From: Centroscyllium fabricii
Lineage: Eukaryota
DNA: 64,000 nucleotides
Direction of reading: 5' to 3'
NCBI GenBank assembly: GCA_051313645.2
Contig: JBNRSN020000003.1
Coordinates: 178,684,001-178,748,000, forward strand
Both the position numbers and the translations under genes were made by a program. Under the pieces are notes generated by a model, which worked only from the letters and a program-made list of their open reading frames with translations, was not told the origin of the DNA and made no database searches. Position 1 is the stretch's first letter; every line of letters begins with the position of its first letter. Positions 11,230-58,276 of the stretch are shown here, piece after piece.

Positions 11230-11791
11230 CAGGTTGTGCACCGTTAATCCGGCACCGTTGGGACCAGGTCGGTGCCGGACCACTGAAAAATCCGAACCAC
11301 TGAAGGTTCGGGGAGCGCATGCGCAGCCCATTCAAAATGGCTGCTGCGCATGCACAAACCATTCAAAATGTCCACTGCACATGCACAGCCCATTCAAAAT
11401 GGCCACTGCGCATGCGCAGACCATTCAAAATGGCTGCTGCGCATGCACAAACCATTCAAAATGTCCACTGCACATGCGCAGCCCATTCAAAATGGCCACC
11501 GCGCATGCGCAGACCATTCAAAATGGCCACCGCGCATGCGCAGTCCATTAAAAATGGCCACCACGCATGGGCAGCCATTAAAAATGGCCACTGTACATGC
11601 ACAGACCATTCAAAATGGCCACTGCACATGCACAGACCATTCAAAATGGCCGCTGCGCATGCACAGACCAGTCGGGGCGAGGCCCGCGCATCGCGAGCGT
11701 CCCTGAGATCACGTGGGCCAGCCAGACGGATCCGTGCCGGACCACTGAAGGTGCCAGACCATCGGGTGCCGGAATAACGGTGCACAACCTG
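11230..11791. mobile_element. pogo/Tigger-like (Tc1/mariner) MITE
   Basis: TIRs caggttgtgcaccgtta / taacggtgcacaacctg; TA duplication at 11228-11229 and 11792-11793; no coding capacity. Confidence 0.85.
11315..11668. repeat. About 30-bp minisatellite (roughly 11-12 units) inside the MITE
   Basis: Unit approx. gcgcatgcgcagaccattcaaaatggccact; it produces the repetitive ORFs in the track. Confidence 0.9.
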
Positions 11792-13278: not shown

Positions 13279-13534
13279 CAAAGATGTGCGGGTTAGGTTG
13301 ATTGGCCAGGATAAATTGACCCTTAGTGTTAGGGGGATTGAATATGTGGGGTTACGGGGATAGGGTGGGATATGTGTTGGTGCAGGCTCGATAGGGATCG
13401 AGGGATATGGGGACAAGGCAGGGACGGGTTACTGGGTTTGGATGATCAGCCATGATCTCATTGAATGGCGGAGCAGGCTCGAGGGGCCGAATGGCCTACT
13501 CCTGCTCCTAGCTTCTGTGTTTCTATGTTTCTAT
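13279..13534 (+). mobile_element. 5'-truncated HE1/V-SINE-like element
   Basis: Starts caaagatgtgcgggttaggttgattgg; ends in CR1-type tail ...cctactcctgctccta...tctatgtttctat. Confidence 0.85.
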
Positions 13535-15909: not shown

Positions 15910-18274
15910 CTGATCTTGTGCCTACCCAATGTATGCATGCTTACTGTCTGCATTTGTTGTTTCGTAATCATCAGGAGCAAGAAATATAGCTGACTTTCAA
16001 AAGCAGGGGCAATACGTTGCCTTGTAGTACCTGTATTGCCACCCTGGCTGTTCAAAGCTGGGACCTTTCCATTCTGCATGGCTCAGCTATGGACTGGATA
16101 AACCTGCCCAGACTTCAGGAAAGCTCACGCTTCAGTTAATATAATCAGGGTCCTACTGCATTCCTATTATGTGTCGCTTTCCCAGCTTGAACAGTCCTGT
16201 TAAGGGACCCTTTTAACCACTAGACCACCCACTCCATGTTTGTTCTTGTTCAGCTTTCTTTGCGTATACACAGTGAAATGTATGTTTTACAGATCCTGCT
16301 GCCATTTACAACAGTCTGCAGCTAGGGAAAAAGTCATTTATACGATTGGCTTTTAAGTGACAAACTCATAAATTACAGCAGAAATGCTGTCAGCACCACT
16401 TTTAATACCTCCTAGAATACAAAGCCAGGTACTAGGGCCAGTCAGTTAGTAAAAAAAATGCAATTTCAATACTCGGTGCAATTGCAGGCATTCAAGAACA
16501 ACTGCTGGATTCAAAAATGTGAAAGGTAAAAGAAAAGCTGGTTACTCAAAAGTCAGTTATTTTCATGAAGAATATAAGGATTAAAAAAATCTTATTCGAA
16601 TATCCAATGTGCTCCATATTTGAAACAGAATTCTGCAGTGTAGTGGAACCAACTTTGGTTTTCTCAACTGACAGTGAGTGACCTGAACAGGTGAAATCAG
16701 AACATGGCTCCAGTTTTTGGGGAATCCGGCTGCAGTACTGCTGCACCACAGTTTGGGTTTTGGATTCAGCGCCCTGAAGTGCATTCTGTAATGCCGCGTT
16801 TTGGACAATGAATTGTGGGGCAATACCTGTATGAGGTCCAAATCAGGCACACCAAAAGCCATGTTAACCAGGATAAAACAGAAAATAATAAGAAAATTTC
16901 AAAAAAGAGGTACAGTGGCCTTAGATTGCTTCTAAGCAAACTCTTCCATAAAATGGTCTCCATTTATCTAAATTGACAATATGGCAGTCTGCCAGGAAGC
17001 CTGGTACACTCCACAGTCTGACACATGTTTTGAGCAAGCTGGCTATGCTAAGGAAGAAGAGTTAACCTTTCAACACCCAAGCAACCCTTAGCATGGCTTC
17101 CTAAGGACTGTTCAATGGGAGCTCTGCAGCTCTATATGGAAAGGGATTATTTACAACAACAAAAAATAATGCGGACGAGAAACAGGATATTCAGAAAAAT
17201 TCTTTGACTCTTAGGGTCATCTTCAAACAAAATGAATGCGCAAGCTCCCAGCGCATTTTATTTTTATTTATACATGTATAATAAAAGTAAAGTTGCTCAA
17301 ACGTCTTTTTTAAACAGAGAAGCTGATAAGCTACTGAACAACCCGTTCTTAAAAGAGTTCCTGTAAATGGTGTTTGGCTCTACAATTTTTCACATTACTG
17401 CTCCTGCCAACATCAGTCGACAAGTCATTGACTTAAACAGTGAAGAGCTGAAAGTCACTGAGCTATGAACAATTAAAAGGTTTATTTTCATAACTGATCT
17501 CAGGCCTACATTAGACAGCAGTATATTAGAATTTTCTTTTTAAATAAAGGATAATCATTCAATGCCAAGAACATGCAGTCTACGTCATTTTACAAGAATA
17601 GTGCACTCTTCAGAAAGAATGTGACTAAATCATCTTTTGAGCAAATTTACCTTTAAATACACATTTATTTAAAATGAGAAGTGCAGTGGGAACCTGCACA
17701 TTAATTTTGTTAAGTAAGTAAGCTTTTATTGTCACATGAACTGAACAAAGGAAAAATTCAGACAGTGAAATGCTTAGTGCTGTTTCACACACGCCATACA
17801 TCAAACCGCGCAACAAAAGAACACAGCACGCGCGGAACCCGCAAGACATCAAGCCATTCTCCGGCGCTATCAATTGTGGGTCCGCTGATGCTCCGGCTCT
17901 TCAGTTCGATGTTGTATTCTTTCCTTCATACCATCCACTGCAATGCACTGCTGAATTCAGGTTTTCGATGGTTACGGGACTACCTCACGGACCGGTGACC
18001 ACCAAGATCTTCCAACTCCACGGCCGGAATTTTGCCCTAATGGCGGGGAACTGGCGGGGATTGGTCGGGCGGGTTTTTGTCCCGCCCGAATAAGTGCCTG
18101 CGTTTCCCACGAGATTTTCATCTAACTATCCATTTAATTCCCCGCCTGTGGGAAGCCTTCCCAATCACCAATTTCCAGTCAGAAAGTCGCACAATATGAT
18201 GTCAGGATTCGGGTTTCCTTTAATAAACACAGCTCGCCTCCCACATTGCTCAGCTTTCTACAACCTTCAGCAGG

Positions 18275-19605
18275 ATGGCAGAGCGTGAGGGTGCTGCATC
18301 GCGCGAGGGGACGACCCGCCCCCGAATTTGATGACGCCTCCCTCGACGCATTAGTCGAGGGGGCAACGACCCATAGGGAGGTTCTCTTCCCCTCCTCAGG
18401 GAGGAAGAGACCTCCCTCCCAGACCAAGGCTGCTTGGCTGCTATCTGTATGTAACCTTGCTGACATATCTCTAACCTCTGCCTTTACTGCCCCACAGGCC
18501 CATCTACAGCTGGACGGCCAAGCAGAGATGAGCACCAGGCCGCCCCTGTTCAGTCCTCAGAGGAACCTGCCACCCCTGAGGGAGCACCGTCAGCACCACA
18601 GACTCCACCCGGCACCAGCGCAGATCCTAGCACCTCGGTGGGACCCCTAGAGCTACATATGACTTGTCACCGGGTGATTCAGACAGCATAAGTGAGCCTC
18701 AGCAGATTGTGGAGACAGGGACAGCAGTGCAGAGTCCTAGTCGGAGGGCACAGGACTCTGCCAGCTTAGCTGAGCTGCATGTCGACCCAGCGCCTTTGGA
18801 TCCATCAGGCAGAGGACACATGATGGGACTCCAGACACAGCTGCAGGCGTCTCTGACAGGTTTTGTCTCCCAGGTAGCTGCGAGTGTCATGCGAATGGAG
18901 GAGTCTGTCGCAAGCATGAGAAGCGACCTTTCGGAGTCAGTGGCGCATGATCGCATCACCATGGAAAGGATGGCAACCACCATGGAAAGGATGGCGACCA
19001 CCATGGAAAGGATGGCGACCACCATGGAAAGGATAGCGACCGTGGACGACAGGATGGCCACAGCCATCGAGCACATAAGTCGCCAGTCTTTCGAAGACAT
19101 GGGGAGTGTTCAGAATAGAATCACATCTCTTGAGCAGCGAGTGGCATCTGTTGAGCACAGGAACCAGACCTTCGTGGAAGTCCCTCTCAGTAGGACTTCC
19201 ACTGCAGATACGGGTCCCCATGGCCCCCCTGAAGTGCAGCAAGGTGCTGTCCAGCCACTTGCTGGGGCTGAGGGGGAGGTGACCCATGAGAGGGAGGTTG
19301 GTGATGCAGCTGAAGGAAGTGGGGGCTCCTCTCCAAGAGCTCACACGTCCACACCACTGCAGAGCCCTCGGTCAGAGGCCCGCCGGAGTCCCCATGCACC
19401 TGAGATGGAAGTCTCATACCCTGCCCAGCCGCAGGAGCAGCAGACTAGTAGCGAGCCCCCACAGGCTCGCCGCCCCAGAGGACGACCGCCAAAGGTGTCC
19501 ACACAGGAGCAGCAGGGCACTCAGCAGGGGGCCTCCACATCTGCTGACACCACAGGAATAGCACCACGTAGGAGCACTCGCAAAAGAAAACTTAAGCACC
19601 CTTAG
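18275..19605 (+). pseudogene. Harbinger Myb/SANT-like DNA-binding protein gene (spliced, partly deleted)
   Basis: RPAPEFDDASLDALVEGA...REVLFPSSGRKRPPSQTKAAW is the N-terminal half of a Myb/SANT-like domain; acceptor cccacag ending 18497; 313-aa ORF with heptad repeat, AT-hook RPRGRPPK and basic C-terminus RKRKLK. Confidence 0.8.
18958..19065 (+). repeat. 21-bp coding tandem repeat (MERMATT heptads)
   Basis: accatggaaaggatggcgacc x about 4-5. Confidence 0.9.
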
Positions 19606-21022
19606 GCACAACCGGAGTCACTTGGGTGTTAGTGTAACAGACATTTAGGTCTCCAAAGCAGTGGTCAGACAGCAGACCACTGCAGGTGCCACCTGATGCA
19701 GTTGTCATGTCTGACATCTTGCGAATGGCCCTTCCACATTGAAACCTTATGCAGGCTGGACAGCAATCGGGCAGGCCTCACAGATATGCAAGGATGCAGA
19801 CGCAACATGGCAGAAGGACTTACAGCAAGAGGCATGAGGTTCAATAACAGACTGCAGCTCAATGGTTAACAGTGAAGGTCCTTAAAATCGGCCTACCTTC
19901 ATGGTGACGCACACCAGCGAACAGAGGGACTGTATGACCGATGTGTGGTCCAAAGGATTACCAGGTTAACTGAACAAACCACCTGATGTTTTCGCTACAC
20001 CAGCAAACACGCCTCAGGGCTAAACTTTAACATGAACAAAACTTTAAAAGGATGGAGGTGGGCAAAGAAAAAATGGGCCAACTGGCCAAAGTACCCACGC
20101 ATCCAACATCATCTGGCTGCAACTGGCCCCTCACAGAACCTGACCCTGATGGAATGGCCAAGGAGCCATGGTGCCTGCATGCCTCAGCTCTCACACATCA
20201 AACAAGATCAGGTGGGTGAAGACCCACCAGACATTGACCCTCACCGCCCTCCACAGTCTTGCCTCATGTCCGGGTGCGCTGCCCTGAAGCACCTCCACGA
20301 CATTTGGAAACACATCATCCCCACCCGCATAAAGAAACCCTACAGCGCCTGCATAATTTTTCTACACATGGATGATGTTCTTCTCCGTTTTTCAAATGAA
20401 GGCCTCGACAACCTCCGGGGGGATGGCCATTTCGATTGGCTGATCAGGGACCGAGGTTTCACAGTGACCCCCACAGCAGAGTCCATGGTTTGTCAGAATG
20501 TGTCACTCTTGAAAAGGGAGGGGCAGCACGTGAGAGGGTGTGAACATGATTGACAATGGATATGAACTTGCAAGCTCAAAACTGGACTGGCTGAGGTTCA
20601 GCATTGCTGATAATGACATTTTGACCGTTTCAACCTGCATGTCTGTAGCTGAGATGCCTGGGACATCATTAATGCAGTGGTTCATAAGTGCTGGTCATCA
20701 GTTGAACAACCATGCATGTGGCCATGTTTGCTTAATGTCGTTACAAAACAGCATGTTGCAGTTGCAACCTTTACTGTTTCTGTGTTCATTATTGCATGTG
20801 ATGGATGGATGGATTGTTTGGATGGGACCATGATCATCAAAGAAATATGTGGTGCGTCAGGCACTTGGCAGGCCCAGAAGCACACTCCCCCAACCCCCCC
20901 CACACACAGATGTCCTTACAGTAGTGGGACTCATGCAGGTATGAGCTGTGGAACTGCTTGGAGTGTGTCAGTGAGGATGCGCTGTTAGGATGAGCAGAGT
21001 AGCAGAAGCTGGCTTGAGTAGG

Positions 21023-22287
21023 CTAAGAAAATCTTGCAAGGATGAGCTCCATCCTTGCTTGCTTGCCAGCAATGGTCTCGCGTAATGGTGGCGCTGGCTG
21101 GGGTCGAGTGGCAGCAACCCCGTCCTCATCCTCCTCTTCCTCCTCCTCCTCCTCTTCCTTCTCCTCCTCCTCTTCCTCCTCCTCCTCATCTGAGGACGGT
21201 ATGCGAGGAGGCAGGTCTTGGTCAGGAGGTTGCAAGCCACGGCGCTGTGCCATGTTGTGAAGTTGACAGCAAACCACTACCATTCTGGAGACCCTGGCTG
21301 GGGTGTATTGCAGGGCTCCACATGATCTGTCCAAGCATCTGAAATGCATCTTGAGCAAGCCGATGGTGTGCTCTATAATGCTTCTGGTGGAGATGTGTCT
21401 GGAGTTGTAGTTCTCCTCAGCCTCATTCGCTGGCCGCCTGACCGGTGTCATGAGCCAAGTCCTGAGGGGATAGCCCTTGTCTCCAAGTAGCCACCCCGGA
21501 CGCTGGTCCGGCGGTGTGAATAGCATAGGCAAGGTTGATTGGCGCAGGACAAAGGAGTCAGGGCAGCTGCCAGGGTACCTGGCACACACATGCAAAATCT
21601 CCTTGTTGTGGTCACACACCAGTTGAACATTGAGTGAATGGAAGCCCTTGCGGTTGAGAAAAGCTACTGGGTTGTCGTTGGGTGCCCTAAGGGCCACATA
21701 TGTACAGTCAATGATGCCCTGTACCCTTGGGAAGCCTGCCAGACGAGCCATTCCAATCGCTCGGGCCCTCACACTTGCGCGATCCGTGGTAAAATGGATG
21801 AAATTGTGGGCACGGGCAAAAAGGGCATCGGTTACCTGGGTGATGCAGGAGTGTGTGGCTCACTGGCAGATTCCGCTGATGTCGGCTGCTGATCCCTGGA
21901 ATGAGCCAGAGGCAAAGAAGCTGAGTGCAGTGGTGACTTTGAGGGCCACTGGTAAGGCATGTCTACATGGTGTCCTGGGCTCCAGCTCTTGCTGCAGCAT
22001 GGCGCAGATGTCTGTGACTGCCTCTCGGGAAAGTCGGGAGTCGCCTTTGGCACCGCCGCTCACTCATGTTGAGGTAGGTGGCTCTGACTCTGTAGACCCT
22101 GTTTGGGGGGTATCTTCTGCGGCACCGGCCTTGGATGCGGCGATGCCTTCTGGCCCATGCTGCCCCCGGAGGGTCCACAGGAGCGTCAGGCTCCTGGTGT
22201 GGCTGCTGCTGTTGCTGCTGTAGCCGCATCTGCTCCTGGTAGAGATCATGCAATCCCAAGAAGGGAAGGAAGAAAATAGCTCCGCTC
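21023..22287 (-). pseudogene. Harbinger (HARBI1-like, DDE_Tnp_4) transposase, disrupted
   Basis: [47 protein letters not shown] motifs; in-frame TGA at 21860-21862, frameshift near 22045; poly-Glu near the C-terminus; start approximate. Confidence 0.92.
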
Positions 22288-22878
22288 GGCTGAGGAAGCA
22301 CTGAGTGAGGGGGGAAAGTGAGAGGGCTTTCCCAGGTCACACTGCAGAAGTGTTTGAGGATGCAACCTTCCACAGGTGTGCTGAAGCCTGTTGCAAATAT
22401 CCCCAGGACTGAGAGAACAATGTGTTTGCGGAAGCGAATGATGGCTGATTAAATGTGAGCCTTCATTGAGTGACCGGACACAGATACTCAGCAGTCTCAC
22501 TGAGTTCACACAAGGGTTTCACCTGACGGGGTTTATCTTGGCGGGTTTTGTGCGTGAAACACCTGAAAATTGCTAAGGGCCCTTAAAATGGGATTACAGA
22601 TGCCAATTAAGGGCCCTTAACGACCTTAACAAGCATCCCCGCCGGGCGCCGGCGGGAAAGATTCGGGGCAGGAAAAAAGGCCGCCCAAAAATTCAAATCC
22701 GGCCCAAAACCCCGCCTCACGGGGACATGAAAATTCCCCCCCACATTTCCGGAAGGGTGCATGGTGACTGGGGGGACCGACCTCCACGCCACATCGGATC
22801 ACCAAAAAAACACCGAACTCCGCCGAAATCTTGCACCTCGGGACGGGAGAACGAAGGCCATAACCTTTTGATTACAAA

Positions 22879-23603
22879 GGGCTAAAAATTGCGTAGCACC
22901 CCCTTTTGGGGTGATAACTTTTCAGGGAGCGCATAAGTATCGCCAGGCGGAGAAGATTTGCTGCTGCCGGGAACTTACGCTTTTGTGCTCCAAGAGGGAA
23001 GTAGAGCACTAAATCAAGTGCTACTACTTCCTTTAGAGCGGTAAAGGGAGTGAGAGGGGCGGTATCGGCAGAGCGCTGAGCAATGTTCAGGGCAGCGCTG
23101 TCGGATTTGCAGACTCCTTCCCTCCCTAAAAGGGAAGGGCCAATGCTGCATTGAATGAATCTTCGGGCTGTGTCTGTTGGGTGACGGCACCTGCACAACA
23201 CGCATAGCAGCCCCAAGCACTCGGTGCAGGGCTGAGCGATCACGGAGGCAAAAGAAAGCAGGAGGCACCAGAATGGGGCCATAAATAAATTTTGCCCAAC
23301 CTGTCCACCACTGCCTTTACATATCGCTCCCCAAGAGGCCAGCCGAGGTGACAACGTCTCCTACAGCTGTCGTTGTTGACGCCCGGCGATGCTGCAGGGG
23401 GCGGGAGCGAATATCACTTCTGGGGGGCTGCGCACTGGATGAAATCACAATCTTCAGGGAGCAAGGGAGCGAAGCAGTAATTCTTAGTGCCAGCGCAAAT
23501 CCTCCAGTGAATTCACCGACGTCCGGTCGATAACTCCTTAGAGCCCTATTACCACTCCCCACAGGCGCTAACGGGAGGCGCAAACCGGGGGAATTTCTCC
23601 CCC
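22879..23603. mobile_element. Non-autonomous Harbinger-like MITE
   Basis: Ends gggctaaaaatt / aatttctccccc, 3-bp AAA duplication, GC-rich interior. Confidence 0.7.
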
Positions 23604-23612
23604 AAATACTTT

Positions 23613-25151
23613 GGGGTAAATTTTCCCTTAGGTGCGGGGAATTGTCGGGTTTCGGGCGGGTCAGGTTTCTGACATGAATCTTAAAGGGCCTGGGAGCCCC
23701 ACGCAATTTTGGCTCAATTGGCCAATTGATTTCCAGCGTGTGGGAACCTTTGGCAATTGACTATTTCCAGTCAGAAAGTCACACAATATGTCATCATCGT
23801 TGCTGGTGCATTTCAGGTCCACAGCAAGCCTTGCTTCTGCTATGGACTGCTAACCTTGTGTCCTTTCATGCCAGAGAGACCTAGGTTTGCTTTAAGGTTT
23901 GATGATCTGGCCCTGCAAGCTTCATTTGAGGGAGCAAGAGCTCATAAAGAGGAGCTCTTCCCTTCTTCAGGGAGGAAGAAGCCTCCCCAGCAGGCTGTGT
24001 GTATCCAGGTGGCAGAGGAGGGCAACTCATTATCAGTACCCTGCAGAACCCACATTCAGTGCAGGAAGAGATTTCATGACCTTCTGCACACTGGAAAAGT
24101 GAGGATGGAATTCCCATCACCCTCAATCTGATCCCCAATGCCTTTCCTCACCAGCACTCAGCTTCAGCAATCTCTTCCTCCACATCCCACTTGACACTCA
24201 CATCCATGCACCCTTACCCATTCCTTCTCTCTATGCTCACATTCACATAACTATTCCACCATGCAGCCCTCACACTCCCTATCACTCTGATGCTTTGAAC
24301 ACAACTGACAACACATATGGAGTGTCCTTGGTCTTGCCACCTCACTCCATCTTTGTCTCCTTCTATGTATCCAGACAGGGACAGCAGTGGAGAGTCCTAG
24401 TCGGAGGGCGCACGACTCTGCCAGCTCGACTCAGCTGCATGTCGACCCTCTGCCTCTGGGTCCATCCATAAAATTCAGTGGTGCTGGAACTCCAGGGATA
24501 GATGCAGGATTGGGTAAGTAAGCAGCAGCCTGGCGCGCCTGCTGCTGTTGTTCCTGGTACTGCTGGTACCGCGGATGGTGTGGGAGCTCATCTAATGCCC
24601 AGAAAGGCATAACCTAAATGGCTTCCACGCTTCTGGCATATGCCTCCGCTGAGGAAGCGCTGAGTGAAGGTGCCGAGAGGGGTTTCCCAGGAGTTCACTC
24701 TGGAGTTATGTGTGAGCCTCCAACCTACCACAAGTGTAATTAGGACTTCTAAATGTTGCCCCACGCCAGAAAAAATAAGGTCCTGCCACCTGCATATGAT
24801 GGCAGGTTCAATGCCAGACCTTCTGATGGAGCTGCTGCTGAGAGTCAGCAAGCCGATTGTGTCCCCGCTAGGTTTCAGCGGCGGGGTTTCCACCTGGCGG
24901 GTTTTGTGTGGGAAACGGCTAAAAATCGCTCAGGCCCCTTAAAATGGCATTATACATGCCAATTACGGATGCTGAAGGAGCCTAACGACCATTTCCGCCG
25001 GTGGCGGGCGGGAAAGATTCGGGACAGACAGACATGACGGCGGGAAATCGGAATGCAGCGGGGATACGGCGGGAGGGGTTGGGACCCCCTGGTATTGCAA
25101 TTTTGCGCCCCGCCGGAAAACCCGCCTGACGGCCCGAGGAAAATTTAACCT
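23613..25151. mobile_element. Internally deleted Harbinger derivative
   Basis: Ends ggggtaaattttcc / ggaaaatttaacct, TTT flanks; keeps Myb exon 1, a block homologous to 18714-18806 (at 24375-24467) and a probable transposase 5' remnant on the minus strand (about 24500-24620). Confidence 0.8.
23868..24098 (+). pseudogene. Myb/SANT-like exon of the deleted Harbinger
   Basis: RFDDLALQASFEGARAHKEELFPSSGRKKP...QVAEE...RTHIQCRKRFHDL followed by donor gtgagg. Confidence 0.75.
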
Positions 25152-31281: not shown

Positions 31282-31816
31282 CAGGTTGAGCAGCGTTAAT
31301 CCGCCACGGGCGGGACCAGGCCCGTGCCGGGAAATGGAAAAAAACGGGAGAACGAGTTTGGACACTGCGCATGCGCGCCATTCAAAATGGCCGCGCGCAT
31401 GCGCGCAGCATTGAGATTGGCTGGCGCGCGCATGCGCAGATCGGGCACGGGTCCGCGTTCCCTCTCCATCGCCTTTCGGGTTGCTGCTGCCGCCGAGCCG
31501 GACTCAGGCTGACAGCTGTTGCCTAGTGACTGTCCGCCTCAGTCACGGGGCTCAGCTGTCGGGAAAATAACCGGCGGCCGCATTGAATTATCTGCGCATG
31601 CGCTAACTGTCCGGTGACGCATGCGCAGATCATTCAAAACACCCGCAGCTGTTTTGAATGATCTGCGCATGCGCTCGGCTCGGCGCATGCGCAGATCATT
31701 CACTGAAGCCACGAGGGGGCTGCCATTTTGCGCATGCGCAGTGCAGTCGGGGCAATTTGTGCCGGCAGACTGAAGCTGCCGGCTATTCGGGACACGGATT
31801 AACGGTGCTCAACCTG
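31282..31816. mobile_element. pogo/Tigger-like MITE related to 11230-11791
   Basis: TIRs caggttgagcagcgttaatccg / cggattaacggtgctcaacctg with TA duplications; many gcgcatgcgc motifs. Confidence 0.85.
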
Positions 31817-39789: not shown

Positions 39790-40251
39790 CAGGGGTCCCT
39801 AACCTTTTTGCGATCGCGGCCCATTTTGGGCTTGTCAATTTTTTCGCGGACCGGTGTGGGGGTGGGGGGGGGGTGCTGGCGGAGATTTTTGGACTGACCT
39901 GGGGGCGGGTGCTGCTGGGGATTGTTTGACTGACCGGGGGGGGTGGTGCTGGCGGAGTTTTTTAGACTGACCGGCGGGGGTGCTGTCTTCCGTCTGTGCC
40001 TCGTCTTCCGTCGGCGAATGATCGCTGCATGCGACGATTCACAGACCCTGCCGCGGCCCGTCGGCAATTGATCTGCGCATGCGCCGGTTCGCAGACCCTG
40101 CCGCGGACCGTCAGCGGATGATCAGCGAATGCGCCAATTCACAGACCCTGCCGTGGCCCGTCGGCAATTGATCTGCGCATGCGCCGATTCACAGAACCTT
40201 TCGCGGACCGGTAAAACTGTCGGTCCGTGGACCGGCGGTTGGGGAACACTG
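39790..40251. mobile_element. hAT (Charlie-like) MITE 1
   Basis: Ends caggggtccctaacc / ggttggggaacactg; 8-bp GTTTAAAC on both sides; internal ~50-bp repeats. Confidence 0.85.
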
Positions 40252-40831: not shown

Positions 40832-43638
40832 TAGGGTTGCAAAGGGGTGGAAAGTTTCCGGTAAATTTCCAGAAATTTTCCACGGGAGGTTTAGCTTGGG
40901 AATTTTGCCCAAAAAAGCACATGCTAGCATAATATTGTTTTTTTTGTATTTCTTTCTTTTTTTTCCACAGGCCCTCTCTTAAAATTACTAACAGAGATGG
41001 AATCTTAATTATTAAGGAATTTCTTAATCAATAAATGTTTATCTTCTTACTTGGCTTGTTTTAATAATTACAAGTTTTGTGTGTGACTGTGAACAAATGT
41101 GTCCTGATTGGTTGGATGAGTGGATGAGCGATTAGCTCCCTCTATTTGTAATATTAGCATATCGAATTGTGATTGGCCTGCAGACATCTGTAAGACTGCT
41201 ATAGTTTTTTTAAGATCCAGGTTAGGGGTCCTGAGGGAAGTCATTTTGTTTTCTGCTGATGCTGTCATGATGCAGTAAGTAAATCAGACTTTATACCAAA
41301 TAAACCAGTTACTTGTTGAACTCTGTTGTCCTTCAATTTAAAATATACAAAATAATACACTATTGGTGATGTAGTGTCGTGTGTGTACAGGTCATGCTTC
41401 CATCACATGGAGCATCAGCAAAAATGTACTCACCCTGTTGCAATCGTGCTGATCAACCGCAGTTCGACACAGAGATGAATGCCCTTTATTTCTCTGCATA
41501 GAAAAATGCCACGTTTACCGTCGGATGTGTGGAAGCATTTTACCCCAGGCATTAAAGATGGAAAGACTGTGTACATGTGCAAACAGTGTACAAAGCCATA
41601 TGTAAAGAATGCCACAAAGATACAGCAGCATTTATCCAAATGCAACAACTTCACTCAAAGCTCACAGCAGTCAGCCCAGAGTTCCTCTGCTTCCATTAAA
41701 GAAGATGATGGTTCTCATTCAGCATCAGGCTCCTTATCATCAGCAACTCCTGGCCCACTTGGAAGGTTCTTTGATACAATGGATAACCATAGCCAGAAGA
41801 ATGCAGATGAGTGCCTTGCTCGAGCTGTATATGCAACAGGCTTACCCCTCATGCTCACAACCAATGTGTACTGGAAGAGATTTTTCAATGTTATTCGCCC
41901 TGCATACTGTTCTCCCACCAGACATGCTTTGTCTACTTATTTGCTGGAGGCTGAGTATAACAGAGTCCAAGGAAGGCTCAAAGAAACGATAGTGATGGCA
42001 GACTGTGTTGCAGTTATCTCAGATGGGTGGTCAAATGTACGAGGGGAGGGCATCATAAACTACATCGTCTCCACTCCTCTCCCAGTGTTCTTCAAGAGCA
42101 CAGACACGAAGGACAACAGACACACAGGCACATACATTGCTGATGAGCTGAAAGTGGTCATCAACGATCTTGGATCACAAAAGGTCTTTGCAGTAGTTAC
42201 TGACAATGCTGCGAATATGAAGGCTGCTTGGGCTCAAGTGGAGGAGGCCTACCCTCATATTACGTCTATTGGGTGCGCAGCTCATGGGCTTAACCTGCTC
42301 CTCAAGGACATCATGGGTTTGAGAACCATGGAAGCACTGTACAAGAGAGCCAAGCAAGTTGTTAAGTATGTCAGGGGAAAACAGGTAGTTGCAGCAACCT
42401 ATAACTCCAAGCAAATGACAAGGAACAAGAACACCACACTGAAGCTGCCCAACAACACTAGATGGGGTGGTGTTGTCATAATGTACAACAGCCTTCTGGA
42501 GGGTAAGGAGTCGCTGCAAGAAATGACAATATCCCAGTCTGGGGATATGGAAACCACCATCAAGAAAATACTGCTGGATGATGTGTTTTGGGAGAGAGTG
42601 GTTAGCAGCCTTAAACTACTCTCACCAGTAGCATCTGCAATTGCTCAGATTGAAGGAGATGAAGCTGTCTTGTCAGATGTTCTCAGGCTTTTTACTGATT
42701 TAAAAGAACAAATCAGCATTGACCTACCCACATCCCTGCTGCTCAAAGCAGAGGAGAAGGCAATTGTTCAATTCACACAGACGCGTCAAGAATTTTGTGT
42801 CAAGCCGATTCATGCTGCAGCATACATGCTGGACCCAAAGCATGTTGGGAGACCAATACTTTCTGGTGAACAGATCAACAGCGCTTAATGTGATTTCTAC
42901 CCTCTCACACCATCTCAATCTGGATGTGGGCAAAGTTCTGGGAAGTCTGGCAAAGTTCTCTACCAAGCAAGGTCTTTGGAATGGGGACGGGATATGGGAA
43001 TCATGCAAGCATATCAGTGCACATACGTGGTGGAAGGGAGAGGCCCTGTCACCTATTGCATCAGTGATACTCCAAATCCCACCTTCATTAGCGGTCTCTG
43101 AACGAAACTGGTCACTTTTTGGGAATACGCATACAAAGGTGCGCAACAGGCTGACTAACAAGAGAGTGGAGAAACTGGTGGCTATCCGGGCATACCTACA
43201 ACTTATTGAGCAAAATACAGAAGTGTCCACCACACAGCTAGACAGTGACACAGAGGAGGAAATGGACACGTCAGAGCCAGAGTCAGAGAATCAGGAGGAG
43301 GAATGATGAGTAGAAGACTCAGAAGACTCATGAGTAGAAGACTCAAAGGGACAACATAAAGACAAATTACAGGCTAAATAAGCTGACGCTCTTTTTATTT
43401 TATTTTAGATGGGTATTTTTTGTGGAGGTTCAATAAAGTTCAAAATTATAACCTAAATAAAGTTTTGAAAGCCTGTTTTTATTTGTATGGAACAGTATGT
43501 CTATTTTGATGACAAAGATAATATAAGGGTCAGAGACAAAAACCATCAGTGTGCAAAAAAACTCAAAATTCCCATAAATTCCCAAAATTCCCATGGAAAG
43601 TTTCCTCTTTTAAAAATTCCCGGAATTTTGCAACCCTA
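40832..43638 (+). mobile_element. hAT DNA transposon, near-autonomous
   Basis: TIRs tagggttgcaaa / tttgcaacccta; 8-bp duplication TGTGCAAA (40824-40831, 43639-43646); ggaaa/tttcc subterminal repeats. Confidence 0.93.
41506..43306 (+). pseudogene. hAT transposase (BED finger, DDE, C-terminal dimerisation domain), one frameshift near 42885
   Basis: VWKHF...CKQC...HLSKC BED finger; SDGWSN, VTDNAANM, CAAHGLNL, TRW; continues in the second frame as ERNWSLFGNTHTKVRNRL. Confidence 0.9.
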
Positions 43639-44085
43639 TGTGCAAAACATTAATCACCCAGAGAAAGATGCACTTGTGACAATGAATATTGTTGTAGATG
43701 GCCGCTACATGGTTTTCCCTATTCATAAAAGGAGAGGAAATTATGTTGAAGACCTACTGTACTTTGGAGGGGGAAATGTTTAATGAACAATCATTATAAA
43801 CAAACTTATTCAACATACTTAAGCTGCAGTATTCCTTTTATTGGTCCTTTTGTGGGCCTACACTGAAATTGTAAGTTATTGATAGTGAGTTCCAAGATAT
43901 GGGCTGGTTCTGACCCTTGATCATTAGAAAGAAGGTCATAGTTAGATTATCAATTTATACTCTCCATACACATCTGAACAAGCCTTACGAAGTGTGTGCA
44001 AACAAGACCAATTTATTGGTATGTGATGGTATCAGTTGCGACAAAGACACCAAATTGTGCAGGGTGCGAAGCTCAGCACAGATAA

Positions 44086-44155
44086 GAAAGAAAGAAAAAT
44101 TTGCATTTATATAGCGCCTTTTATGACCACCGGATATCTCAAAGCGCTTTACAGC
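44086..44155 (-). mobile_element. Deu-SINE 3' part, split by the Gypsy insertion
   Basis: ttgcatttatatagcgcctt...aaagcgctttacagc joins directly to 48669 onward. Confidence 0.8.
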
Positions 44156-44445
44156 TGTGGTGAAATAAGTCTTATAAGTATACCTCATTCTACCTGTGTA
44201 TAGTTCCCTATTGTAATCTATTGCAACCCTGCTGTTTTCTTGGTTGGTCAGGAATGTGTGTTCACTCTGTTGTGCCATTGATTATCCAGATCTGTGACAT
44301 CGCCCCTAGCTCCGCCTCCTTGTTCAGTCTGAGAAACCATTTCTGCAAGGCAACATGTGGCTCCAGTGCGGTCCAGTTCTAAGCTATTAAAAGCCAACTG
44401 TTTGAGTTATAACTACCTGTCTCAGTCTCTATTTAAGCCACATCA
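44156..44445 (+). repeat. 5' LTR (290 bp)
   Basis: tgtggtgaaa...cacatca; ATTAAA at 44386-44391. Confidence 0.95.
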
Positions 44446-44446
44446 A

Positions 44447-44464
44447 TTTTAATAGCTTAGAACT
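44447..44464 (+). promoter_or_regulatory. Primer-binding-site position complementary to the element's own LTR
   Basis: ttttaatagcttagaact is the exact reverse complement of 44375-44392; no TGG start typical of a tRNA PBS. Confidence 0.8.
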
Positions 44465-44471
44465 CCCAAGG

Positions 44472-47400
44472 ATGGACAGATTCCTGAAGCCAGAGCGGCT
44501 GGACACATTCGGCAGGCGCACCAAAGAAATTTGCACATTGGTGTTTCGAACATTTCATTGCATCACTCGATGATGGGGCCATCAAACTGGGCCGACTGAC
44601 TAACCTAGTAAGTCATCGGATTTACTCGCTAATTGAGGACGCCACTACATATAACGATGTGCTCGCGACTCTTAAGACGCAATACCAGAAGTCTGTTAAT
44701 GAGGTGTATGCCAGGCATCTCTTGGCTACCCGCAGGCAACTACCGGAGGAATCGCTGGATGATTTTCTACAGAACCTAAAGGCCCTGGTGAAGGACTGCA
44801 AATACCAGGCCGTGACAGCCATCATGTACCAGGAAGAAGCGGTTCGCGATTCGTTTATATTGGGCCTTCGATCGAATTACATTAGGCAGAGGTTGCCTGA
44901 AAAGGACACTCTGGATCTAAAGACGGCCGTGGCTACAGCTCGATCGCTGGATGTGGCGCAGAAGAACTCCAAGACCTATGCGTCAGGCCATGCGGCCCTC
45001 TCAACCTCGTGCGCGCCGAGTAAGGAGGCGCCATCCTCTCCGCCTAGGCCTCAGACCAGCCCTACACCACGGGAGTCTCCACCCAGCCCCACCACTGCAG
45101 CGATGTCCCGCGGACCAAGATGCTACTTCTGCGGCCAGCTCCAGCTCCCCAGACACCGATGTCCCGCGAGAGACGCCACATGTTTCAAGTGCAAGAAATG
45201 GGGACATTTCAGCAAGGTATATAAGGGGATACCCATACCCGATACTGTCTCCGCGGCCCTACATGTGGTCCCAGAATTTGATATCGTCTCAGCGGTCGCC
45301 CACAGTTCTACGATCGCCTCAATCACGGTCGACCAGTCCAGACCGCATCCACTATCGAAGTCTATGATGGACGTTAAGGTAAACGGACATCCGACGAAGT
45401 ATTTAATCGATTGCGGGAGTACTGAGAGTTTTATTCACCCTAACCTCATCAAACCGTACTCATTAAAGGTGCACCCTACCCGGAGCAAAATCGCGATGGC
45501 ATCTAAGTCCCTCACTTCGGAGGTAACCGGTTTCTGTAAAGTAACACTGACTGTTAAGGGCACAGAGCATAAAGATTTTAAACTCCTCGTGTTGCCACAG
45601 CTCTGCGTGAAACTAATTCTAGGCCTAGATTTTCAGTGCCACCATGAGAGCGTCACACTTGCATGTGGCGGATCACAGTCCCCACTCACAGTCTGCGGCC
45701 TCTCCACCTTAAAGATAAGCTCGCCATCCCTGTTTGCGAACCTCACCCCAAACTGTAGACCTATCGCAACCAAATGTCGACTGTGCAGTTCGGAAGATAA
45801 ACAATTTATAAAAGAAGAAGTAGGAAGGCTACAACGGGAGGGTATCATTGAAAACAGTAATAGCCCATGGCGTACTCAGGTAGTGGTGGTTAAAACTAAC
45901 GAAAAGAAACGGCTCGTGGTCGACTACAGCCAGACCATCAACATATATACGCAACTAGACGCTTATCCCTTGCCTCGCATCTCCGAGATGGTGAACCAGA
46001 TTGCCCAGTATCGTGTGTTCTCCACTATTGACTTAAAGTCTGCCTATCACCAGCTCCCCATAAAAGTAGACGACCGCCCTTACACGACTTTTGAAGCAAA
46101 TGGGCGCCTGTACCAATTCCTTAGGGTACCCTTCGGGGTAACAAATGGAGTTTCCGTTTTCCAACGGGTAATGGACCATATGGTAGATGAGAATAAGTTG
46201 GAGGCAACATTCCCATACCTGGACAATGTTACGATCTGCGGACACGACCAACAGGAACATGACCGGAATCTCGCAAAATTTCGAGAATCTGCCCAAAAGC
46301 TAAACCTGACCTATAACGAGCACAAATGTACTTTCAATACTACTCGTCTATGTATTCTCGGCTGCGTGGTAGAGAATGTGGTAATAGGGCCAGACCCTGA
46401 AAGATTACGCCCGCTTAAAAGAACTACCACTGCCACATAACCCTAAGGCCTTAAGAAAGTGTCTAGGATTCTTCTCTTATTATGTCCAGTGGGTAGCCAA
46501 CTATTCAGACAAAGCCCGAGCCCTTATCAAGTCAACGTCTTTCCCCCTATCAGTAGAAGCGCAGGAGGCATTCACCAACATCAAACGGGACATTGAAAGG
46601 GCTGTGGTATGGGCTGTAGATGAGAGTATACCCTTCCAGGTAGAGAGCGATGCTTCAGATTTCGCATTGGCTGCAACCCTCAATTAGGCCGGGAGACCGG
46701 TAGCCTTCTTTTCCCGTACACTACAGGGTCCTGAAATCAGGCATTCTTCCGTAGAGAAGGAAGCACAGGCAATTATCGAGGCAGTCAGACATTGGAGACA
46801 TTATCTCGCCGGCAAACATTTCACACTCCTCACTGACCAGCGGTCTGTGGCCTTCATGTTTAACACGAAGCAGAGAGGCAAGATAAAAAACGACAAGATC
46901 CTAAGATGGCAGACAGAACTGTCCACTTACGACTACGAGATTATGTACAGGCCAGGAGCACTCAACGAGCCACCCGATGCCCTATCTCGAGGGGTATGTG
47001 CCAGCCTTGGAACCAACAAGCTCCAAAGTCTACACGACGCACTCTGCCACCCTGGAATCACCCGATTGAATCACTTCATCAAGTCTCGTAACTTACCCTA
47101 CTCCATTGAGGAGGTCCGAACGATGACCAGGGCCTGCCGCGTTTGCGCGGAATGCAAACCCCACTTCTACAGGCCCGAGCAAGCCCACCTTATCAAGGCA
47201 ACTCGGCCATTCGAGCGCCTAAGCCTTGATTTCAAAGGTCCTCTCCCTTTGGTTGATCGTAATGTCTATTTCCTCAACATTATAGACGAATACTCTCGCT
47301 TCCCCTTTGCCATTCCCTGCCTGGACATGACCAGTGCTACGGTAATCAAAAGCCTCTGCAGCTTATTCTGCCTGTTCGGTATGCCCAACTATATCCATAG

Positions 47401-48112
47401 CGACAGAGGGATGTCGTTTATGAGTGATGAGTTATGCCGGTTCTTACTATCAAAAGTGATTGCTACTAGTAGAACCACTAGCTACAACCCCCGGGGCAAT
47501 GGGCAGGTTGAGAGGGAGAGTGCGACGGTGTGGAAGGCAGTCATTCTGTCTTTAAAATCGAAAGGCCTACCGACCTCTCACTGGCAGGAAGTTCTGCCCG
47601 ATGTACTGCATGCCATAAGGTCTCTGCTGTGCACCGCAACGAATGCTACTCCTCATGAGAGGATGTTCGGTTTCTCCAGGAAATCTTCCTCAGGTATTTC
47701 ACTACCCGGGTGGCTGACGTCCCCGGGTACTGTACTGCTACGAAAACATGTGAGAGGTCGTAAGATTGATCCCCTAGTGGAGGAAGTACAGCTCCTCCAC
47801 GCCAATCCTCAGTACGCATATATTCAATATCCTGATGGACGTGAGGATACTGTTTCAATAAAGGACCTGGCTCCAGCAGGAGAAGAGAGAGAGAGCGACA
47901 CTACTAGCAAAGATGCGGGTGTGGAGCGCCATGATGAGCCGCCTGTGGAGGCGGGATGCCCGGAGGTACAAGACATACAAAACGCCATTTTGGAAAACCC
48001 AGCCGACGCCGGGACGGTGGAGGAACCTGAGCAAGTTCCCCGGGAGGTTCCCCAGCCGACGCTACGTCGCTCGCTACAAACTGTAAAACCCCAGGTCAGA
48101 CTTAACTTATAG
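44472..48112 (+). pseudogene. gag-pol polyprotein, disrupted by frameshifts and stops
   Basis: MDRFLKPERLD start; Cys knuckles CYFCG...CFKCKKWGH; protease LIDCGS; RT IDLKSAYHQ, PFGVTN, YLDN; RNase H VESDASD; integrase HHCC and DDE (SLDFKGP, HSDRG, GQVER). Confidence 0.93.
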
Positions 48113-48122
48113 GAGGGGTGAA

Positions 48123-48663
48123 TGTGGTGAAATAAGTCTTATAAGTATACATAGAAACATAGAAGATAGGAGCAGGAGTAGGCCATTCGGCCCTTCGAGC
48201 CTGCTCCGCCATTCAATGAGATCATGGCTGATCATCCAAACCCAGGAGCCCGCCCCTGCCCTCTCCCCATTTCCCTCGATCCCCATCGAGCCTGCACCGA
48301 CACATATCTCACCCTATCTCCGTAACCCCACATATTCAATCCCCCTAACACTAAGGGTCAATTTATCATGGCCAATCAACCTAACCCGCACATCTTTGGA
48401 CTCATTCTACCTGTGTATAGTTCCCTATTGTAATCTATTGCAACCCTGCTGTTTTCTTGGTTGGCCAGGAATGCTGTGTTCACTCTGTTGTGCCATTGAT
48501 TGTCCAGATCTGTGACCTCGCCCCTGGCTCCGCCTCCTGGTTCAGTCTGAGAAGTCATTTCTGTAAGGCAACATGTGGCTCCAGTGCGGTCCAGTTCTAA
48601 GCTATTAAAAGCCAACTGTTTGAGTTGTAACTACCTGTCTCAGTCTCTATTTAAGGCACATCA
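48123..48663 (+). repeat. 3' LTR interrupted by a SINE
   Basis: Matches the 5' LTR apart from the 48151-48400 insert, about 10 substitutions and 1 indel by eye. Confidence 0.93.
48151..48400 (-). mobile_element. 5'-truncated HE1/V-SINE-like element inside the 3' LTR
   Basis: Reverse complement of the 13279-13534 sequence; absent from the 5' LTR. Confidence 0.92.
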
Positions 48664-48668
48664 ACAGC

Positions 48669-49040
48669 CAATTAAATACTTTTTGGAGTGTAGTCACTGT
48701 TGTAATGTGGAAAACGTGGCAGCCAATTTGCGCACAGCAAGCTCCCATAAGGAGTAAAATAATATTGACCAGATAATCTGTTTTTGTTATGTTGGTTGAG
48801 GGATAAATATTGGCCTAGACATCGGGAATAACTCCCTTCTCTTCTTCGAAATAGTGCCATGGGACCTTTTACGTCCACCAAAGAGAGCAGACAGGGCCTC
48901 GGTTTAAAGTCTCATCCGAAAGACAGCACTCCCTCAGCACTGCGGTGTCAGTCTAGCTTTATGTGCTCAAGTCCCTGGAGTGGAACTTGAACTCATAACC
49001 TTCTGATTCAGAGGATAGTGTGCTACCAACTAAGCACCAC
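48669..49040 (-). mobile_element. Deu-SINE 5' part (Deu core and tRNA head)
   Basis: gtgccatgggaccttttacgtccacc...cagacagggcctcggtttaa; head ggaacttgaactcataaccttctgattcagagg. Confidence 0.85.
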
Positions 49041-57832: not shown

Positions 57833-58276
57833 TGTCACCCATGGCTCAGTGGTAGCAGTTTTGCCTCTGAGTCAGAAGGTTGTGGGTTCAAGTCCCACTC
57901 CAGAGACTTGAGTACAGAAATTTGGGCAGACACCCCAGTGCAGTGCTGAGGGGAGTGCTGCACTGTTGGAGGTGCCGTCTTTCGGATGAGACGTTAAACC
58001 GAGGCCCCGTCTGCCTCCTCAGGTGGTCGTAAAAGATCCCATGGCACTATTTTGAAGAAGAGCAGGGGAGTTATCCCCGGTATCCTGGCCAATATTTATC
58101 CCTCAATCAACATAACAAAGACATATTAGCTGGTCATTATCACATTGCTGTTTGTGGGAGCTTGCTGTTTCCTACATTACAACTGTGACGACACTTCAAA
58201 AGTACTTCATTGGCTGTAAAGCGCTTTGGGACATCCTGAAGTCGTGAAAGGTGCTAAATAAATGCAAGTCTTTCTT
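57833..58276 (+). mobile_element. Full-length Deu-domain SINE (SacSINE1-like)
   Basis: A box tggctcagtgg, B box ggttcaagtcc, Deu core gaggccccgtctgcc...aaaagatcccatggcact, L2-like tail aaatgcaagtctttctt. Confidence 0.88.

Follow-up and report, generated by a model that had tools for sequence, protein, structure and literature searches.

Covarying LTR and primer-site arms point to self-priming in a chromodomain-less clade of animal Ty3/Gypsy retrotransposons

Introduction

How does a Ty3/Gypsy retrotransposon start reverse transcription when its primer position is a complement of its own LTR? The question is raised by an element in the 64,000-nt stretch of Centroscyllium fabricii DNA analysed here (the window), for which an original prediction proposed self-priming. 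In the available portions of the papers on the subject, Ty3/Gypsy self-priming is treated as a hallmark of the Tf1/sushi chromoviruses, and whether tRNA-free priming is ancestral or arose repeatedly is a question left open (excerpt of PMC3601003). A second large self-priming lineage devoid of chromodomains would bear on this question. We found no description of self-priming in a chromodomain-less animal Gypsy clade in the literature searched; subscription journals, Repbase and GyDB lie outside this coverage and a prior mention is possible.

A decayed Ty3/Gypsy element at the window locus

The element occupies positions 44156-48663 of the window, on the forward strand, as do all its features described below. 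It is bounded by target-site duplications ACAGC (44151-44155 and 48664-48668), and the flanks join as a single copy of an interspersed repeat. The 5' LTR (44156-44445) has 290 nt and the termini TG...CA. The 3' LTR (48123-48663) is split by a 250-nt repeat insertion at 48151-48400, and 280 of 290 aligned bases are identical between the two LTRs. The 5' LTR end at 44445 agrees with the 3' LTR and with the 5-bp target duplication. Loose contig ends also mark it in four sequencing runs, with 34 contigs in run X1 departing from the reference at this position. Between the LTRs lie a broken gag-pol region (44472-48112), encoding a gag with two zinc-knuckle-like arrays, a protease, an RT, an RNase H and an integrase, and a polypurine tract (48111-48122) placed from the sequence. 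The Pfam domain order, gag-PR-RT-RNase H-IN, is of the Ty3/Gypsy type, and the closest solved structure to the element protein (query P0031) is Ty3. Pfam revealed no env and no chromodomain in the coding region, the part after the integrase included, so that the predicted absence of a chromodomain stands. The gag-pol reading is broken in three places. The frame of the ATG at 44472 closes at codon 34, with frame changes near 44505-44518 and near 46415 and a stop at 46685-46687. The locus is a decayed member of a high-copy Ty3/Gypsy family, which is itself part of a large animal clade without chromodomains.

The surroundings are rich in other repeats. The element is nested in an older interspersed repeat of about 300 nt (44092-44155 and 48664-48929), an uninterrupted copy of which lies on the minus strand at 57972-58276. 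The 250-nt insert, present in the 3' LTR only, is 94% identical to 13279-13526 and 92% identical to 1061-1256 on the opposite strand; we take it to resemble a SINE or LINE tail of cartilaginous fishes. A hAT-like transposase remnant is found at 41479-43306 (DUF659, E 1.5e-30, two overlapping frames). Region 18138-22448 carries a Harbinger-like transposase on the minus strand (DDE_Tnp_4, E 2e-35, 21023-21859) and a coiled-coil ORF on the plus strand (18631-19605), and related sequence recurs near 23600-25100. At 11284-11716, 31363-31743 and 40008-40207 lie tandem arrays, their units being 31 and 50 nt long, and a cluster in which the palindrome TGCGCATGCGCA, presumably an NRF1-like site, is abundant.

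A self-complementary stem at the primer position

The LTR arm at 44375-44392 and the primer-binding position at 44447-44464 are exact reverse complements over 18 of 18 nucleotides, as had been predicted. The next base on either side of the stem forms neither a Watson-Crick nor a G-U pair. Other parts of the prediction were also borne out: the primer position begins one base past the LTR end, the spacer being the A at 44446, it contains no tRNA-type TGG, and the arm includes an ATTAAA poly(A) signal (44386-44391), the sole AWTAAA of the 5' LTR. The arm, a candidate self-primer that would form the first 18 nt of the RNA, terminates on this hexamer, and homologous arms occur in relatives. The loop that follows (44393-44445) begins with GCC and consists of the remaining R and U5; it would provide the context of the cut site and the homology for strand transfer. 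The arm is present a second time inside the 3' LTR, at 48593-48610.

Such a stem is far above chance level. In the same element, 146 internal 25-mers give 4-10 nt of complement to the LTR, versus 18 at the primer position. Longer inverted repeats within 400 nt (24 and 20 bp) occur in the window only at 31618-31702, amid repeated palindromic units. The predicted pairing probability of the stem is 0.97-0.99 for modelled transcript starts from 44156 to 44378. No variant at a frequency of at least 5% was observed in either arm in four sequencing runs; run X20 does not cover the arm at 44447-44464. Contigs from the sequencing runs show that several bases near the arms are private to the window copy.

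The original prediction also placed an initiator, YYANWYY, at the arm start. The match is real (44373-44379), and the motif itself is weak. The window LTR has no TATAWA. For this family, 44375 itself is a plausible transcript start. The combination of 18 paired bases with an initiator exactly at the arm start is special to the window family, 13-15 paired bases being typical elsewhere. ARAGORN found 0 tRNAs in the 64-kb window.

As a control, we looked at other Gypsy elements in 40 regions picked for strong RNase H scores and long frames. They come from a single host, one contaminated genome that is also home to the clade member L083, except for two taken from other records. These regions yielded 29 RT hits with an LTR pair, corresponding to 28 distinct elements, and 27 of the 29 have TGG at the LTR end. 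The self-stems of all control elements measure 3-7 nt; Gypsy LTRs therefore do not in general come with the long stem. The genome concerned (G003, with L083 and L115-L152) is filed as bacterial and gave 109 Ty3/Gypsy RNase H matches, which indicates much animal DNA in it. Many of its elements have an integrase-tail (SH3) match upstream of the RNase H, an order of the Gmr1 type (name from an excerpt of PMC3601003).

The clade and its sampling

A search with gag identified 119 relatives among 1964 candidates. With the RT-RNase H of one relative as query, 1122 protein clusters were retrieved at E up to 1e-60 among 5131 candidates, some of which may belong to neighbouring clades. The hosts are cnidarians, echinoderms, crustaceans, a cephalopod, tunicates, nematodes and cartilaginous fishes. 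Named hosts are Nematostella, Xenia, Actinostola, Paramuricea, Apostichopus, Portunus, Cherax, Argonauta, Clavelina, Styela, Trichuris, Trichinella, Mustelus, Scyliorhinus, Narcine, Hypanus and Mobula. The named shark and ray homologues, together with the repeats of the window, would fit a cartilaginous fish as the host of the window element. The polyproteins are mostly 1150-1260 aa long and the gag contains two CCHC arrays (alignment A1). In 30 long polyproteins of relatives, Pfam gave no match to a chromodomain or to an SH3/GPY-F-type domain (E up to 0.01). In an RT tree of 54 rows, built with a quick method, the window element and 26 relatives form one clade (SH-aLRT 100) on a stem of 1.41 changes per column. 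The 27 other rows include no chromovirus, 19 loci were omitted as too short, and the long branches of L131 and L153 are unreliable. Three scans of the viral collection returned no relative of the element, phages gave none, and the plasmid collection gave 3 distant records with matches too short for the tree. One circular record of 5332 bp filed as a Wolbachia plasmid (L165, NZ_CP087956.1) encodes a Ty3/Gypsy-type protease, RT and RNase H; it is probably a host retrotransposon circle.

The stem was surveyed in 85 loci: the best 80 of 151 metagenome loci and four genome contigs, all retrieved with a gag alignment, and the window. A gag start and 100 nt upstream of it were available in 68 of these loci (17 dropped), which form 31 clusters. 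With the LTR-end motif as the sole anchor, 63 loci in 29 clusters were kept, 5 of the 68 being dropped for want of the motif. The two clusters lost at this step are L038, with a stem of 13 bp, and the stemless L041. L041 shows a TGG near gag; its LTR end is unrecognisable in the 118 nt available upstream (locus L041:1-124), and it is the sole clade member seen with such a TGG and no stem. Three of the 29 clusters scored below 10.5 and were set apart from the 26 best-paired families. Two of them (L024 and L073) have no recognisable full LTR upstream; in the third, L049, the primer site is duplicated and its first copy, as read by eye, pairs over 12 nt. LTR ends were fixed by the 3' LTR in L010-L012, L023, L029, L033, L058, L083 and the window.

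Covariation of the arm and the primer site

The two arms covary between families, as the original prediction led one to look for. When one unselected locus per family, its first member, is considered, 24 of 29 families pair with their own LTR at a score of at least 11, versus 25 of 812 cross-family pairings. At a score of at least 13, the counts are 23/29 and 4/812. This cross-family control matters because the anchor motif takes in the first T bases of the primer site. The families are related and their cells are not independent events, yet the shared motif is retained in the cross-family pairings and the two sets remain clearly apart.

In the 26 best-paired families, 333 of the 338 cells at positions 1-13 are Watson-Crick pairs and 5 are mismatched, with 0 G-U pairs. 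Row shuffling (20,000 shuffles) gave 212 +/- 8 Watson-Crick cells, with a maximum of 251. The arms of the 26 families comprise 25 distinct 13-mers. Three or four different pair types are found in the middle columns of the stem, and in L034 both arms are altered even at the conserved inner end. G-U pairs occupy 0 of 178 wobble-capable cells; in helices predicted for the adjacent loops they make up 38 of 211 pairs. The score that selected the families weighted G-U at half. Without threshold, the first members give 355 Watson-Crick pairs, 4 G-U pairs and 18 mismatches (4/377 G-U), and all 63 loci give 743, 16 and 60, respectively.

The geometry is conserved as well. The spacer is a single base in 26/26 families (A in 24, G in 1, T in 1) and the primer site starts with TGG in none of the 26. 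The arm ends on AATAAA or ATTAAA in 17 families, the 9 others having no canonical hexamer, and is directly followed by a GCCT motif (G 21, C 22, C 22, T 20 of 26). The arm end lies 23-86 nt before the LTR end. Stems measure 11-18 bp, mostly 13-15 with 13-14 the commonest, and pairing falls off after position 13-14. A local duplex is predicted at a probability of 0.87-0.99 in all 26 families.

These results bear on the idea that the site binds a tRNA fragment or another host RNA, its match to the LTR being secondary. The 18-nt length of the window site is the usual length of a retroviral primer site and would fit such a primer. The lack of any TGG start in the 26 sites argues against it, as do the 25 distinct 13-mers, each tracking its own LTR, which a conserved host RNA would not give, and a search of 44000-44700 against Rfam, in which nothing matched at E up to 5. 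We regard a host-RNA primer as very improbable.

The outer end of the stem is informative about the RNA 5' end. No stem exceeds 18 bp. A purine opens all five stems of 16-18 bp and 3 of the 21 shorter stems. A purine peak is observed 16-17 nt before the arm end across the 26 families. This peak and the purine starts of the five longest stems suggest a primer of 17-18 nt. At the matching place, YYANWYY is found in 5/26 relatives and the looser A[GT]T[TC] in 13/26, and no TATA peak appears upstream of the arm. Most relatives have a pyrimidine as the first base of the perfect stem, which is atypical for a Pol II start; a few 5' bases would therefore stay unpaired.

Two further observations concern the loop region. 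In L049 and L056, about 150 and 110 nt before gag, respectively, the loop contains a second succession of LTR end, A and primer-site arm, so that one LTR arm is followed by two copies of the primer site; the second copy could derive from cDNA ends that retained the primer copy. A small hairpin begins directly after the arm in 14 of 26 predicted folds, that of the window not among them; we mention it as a lead only.

Proposed mechanism of self-priming

The stem sits where a primer site is expected, after the LTR end and one base, and the 3' end of the arm faces the LTR. Together with the polarity, the covariation and the absent tRNA site, this position points to the element's own arm as the primer. 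The arms covary, TGG and G-U pairs are missing from the 26 best-paired families, and the tRNA-primed Gypsy elements of the control lack the stem. We therefore consider it probable that the clade primes minus-strand DNA synthesis with its own RNA in a Tf1-like manner, as the original prediction proposed for the window element; the evidence is that of compared sequences.

The mechanism that we propose is the following. The transcription start, 44375 in the window family, would lie about 17-18 nt upstream of the point where the hexamer stretch ends, and the 5' end of the RNA would fold onto the primer site. The RNase H of the element would then cut just after the A-run and before GCC, as in Tf1, releasing a 3'-OH directed toward the spacer base and the end of the LTR. 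The rest of R, from the cut to the poly(A) site, would be used in strand transfer, and the arm would be rebuilt from the 3' LTR; the position of the arm would leave a short R for this transfer. Plus-strand synthesis would copy the primer and thereby keep the primer site an exact DNA complement, which would explain the absent G-U pairs.

The near-absence of G-U suggests DNA-level copying of the primer into the site, and not merely selection for an RNA fold. Such templating agrees with Tf1, in which about half of the cDNA retains a reverse-transcribed copy of the primer site (excerpt of PMC11042837). The step is not general, since the primer of Ty3 does not serve to perpetuate its primer site, according to the available part of PMC5371799. 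The same source places the polymerase and RNase H sites of the Ty3 RT about 13 bp apart. The common stem of 13-14 bp matches this spacing, and the two may be linked.

In Tf1, priming requires two auxiliary duplexes, which complete a three-duplex structure, the pretzel (excerpt of bioRxiv 10.1101/2022.12.06.519325). Pretzel duplexes received no family-specific support in the clade, with own versus cross-family means of -7.4 versus -7.1 and -2.3 versus -3.0 kcal/mol. The arm-PBS duplex, used as a positive control of this test, gave -16.7 for own versus -5.2 for cross pairings. The cut, if it occurs, would thus be set up differently.

Before the cut, the same duplex would hide the 5' poly(A) signal. 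The 3' LTR cannot mask its own signal because it has no partner downstream. Masking of the 5' signal follows from the geometry and is possibly a second function of the stem. A stem that serves only as this switch, with priming left to an unknown host RNA or protein, would account for the inner end on AATAAA/ATTAAA in 17/26 families, for a stem formable only at the 5' LTR and for the missing pretzel duplexes. It would leave the element without any other primer site, as the stem occupies the whole primer position in 26/26 families. A structure held by selection only should in addition tolerate G-U pairs as the neighbouring helices do, and the nine families without a canonical hexamer, including L034 with both arms changed at the inner end, keep the stem. 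We judge a switch without priming improbable.

The source of the arm is a separate matter. The primer could be the element's own arm taken from another molecule or from the RNA 3' end, that is, from the 3' R copy or from solo-LTR transcripts trimmed after the hexamer. The 3' LTR has the same arm, matching at 12-13 of 13 positions in 15 of 19 loci among those listed, and the RNA 3' end necessarily includes the arm, whatever the start site. LTR depth is about 10 times the internal depth in run X1, suggesting many solo LTRs, and such a source needs neither a pretzel nor an exact start site. Cutting the 3' copy would, however, presumably remove the R acceptor for strand transfer, and a distant or trans partner should lose against the local duplex predicted in every family. 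A 5' end is also suggested by the 18-bp ceiling and the purine starts. A 3' or trans source seems to us little probable, and we retain priming by the 5' arm folded in place.

Implications

At its fullest, the picture is that an animal Gypsy lineage invented self-priming independently of Tf1/sushi, with the poly(A) signal as the 3' end of the primer. One duplex of 13-18 bp would keep the 5' poly(A) site silent and, after a cut at the conserved A-run/GCC junction without a pretzel, start reverse transcription, the site being re-copied at each cycle. We put this complete scenario forward tentatively, as a possibility that may well fail in one of its parts. The clade would offer a simpler natural substrate than the Tf1 pretzel for RNase H cutting of an RNA-RNA duplex. 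Primer formation and poly(A) control would be tied in one structure, which short reporter RNAs could test. These elements will be under-called wherever annotation software insists on a tRNA site; the complement of their own LTR is a clean diagnostic for them.

Origin of the clade and comparison with known systems

The dimensions of Cigr-1 of Ciona, an LTR of about 245 bp and one ORF of about 1200 aa, agree with the clade polyproteins, the comparison being by size alone. Cigr-1 and the MolGy/Mag-related clades of molluscs and annelids are likewise chromodomain-less and occupy overlapping host groups (PMC6238403, PMC8556966). The clade has probably already been named from RT trees, as Cigr-1 by this size or possibly as a MolGy or Mag-related group. 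Its peptide motifs were not found in the searchable supplements of these two papers. The main text of PMC6238403, in its available form, contains zero occurrences of 'PBS', 'tRNA' or 'self', and priming is therefore not described there. Membership of the CsRN1 clade was considered and dropped. The LTR 5' motif of that clade is TGTGGYG (excerpt of PMC3601003), which fits the TGTGGTG of the window LTR; the relatives start with TGATGTG, TGTTGTG, TGACGTG and TGTCGTA, which do not fit.

Primer positions that complement the element's own LTR are known in Tf1/Tf2 of Schizosaccharomyces pombe, in Tj1 of S. japonicus and in the Tf1/sushi group including Tcn1 (excerpts of PMC4600332, PMC6317226 and bioRxiv 10.1101/2022.12.06.519325). 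The clade shares with this group the polarity of the stem and the Ty3/Gypsy domain order. It differs from it by the lack of a chromodomain, by two zinc knuckles and by the absence of pretzel support. The self-primer of Tf1 has 11 nt. The stem of the clade has 11-18 bp, a one-base spacer and an arm that ends on the hexamer.

Could the clade be a fast-evolving Tf1/sushi offshoot that lost the chromodomain and kept self-priming? Its very long stem branch makes placement uncertain, chromodomain gain and loss are patchy in Ty3/Gypsy trees (excerpt of PMC13524379) and hairpin priming may be ancestral (excerpt of PMC3601003). Domain content speaks against this descent: the 30 long polyproteins are free of chromodomain and SH3/GPY-F-type matches, and the gag has two CCHC arrays, given for Mag and Micropia/Mdg3, versus usually one in chromoviruses (excerpt of PMC2577118). 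So do the unsupported pretzel and an RT-RNase H that scores 183 bits against Ty3, versus 260-324 for three tRNA-primed controls; its score is also lower against the caulimovirus enzyme, 122 versus 150-179 for controls. We hold descent from Tf1/sushi to be unlikely, and an origin of self-priming separate from that of Tf1/sushi, favoured by the domain content, to be likely.

Self-priming outside chromoviruses was predicted from LTR complementarity in the plant Ty1/copia TAR lineage (Houba, Osr-1), according to an excerpt of PMC6317226, so that more than one self-priming origin has already been proposed. TAR elements differ from the clade by their superfamily, their domain order and their plant hosts. 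With respect to poly(A) control, the clade resembles retroviruses in having a poly(A) signal base-paired near the RNA 5' end. In poly(A)-hairpin occlusion of the HIV-1 type, the poly(A) signal in R is base-paired near the 5' end. In the clade, unlike in the HIV-1 type, no tRNA site is left. The partner strand is the primer position, beyond the LTR, and the pairing is thus confined to the 5' end.
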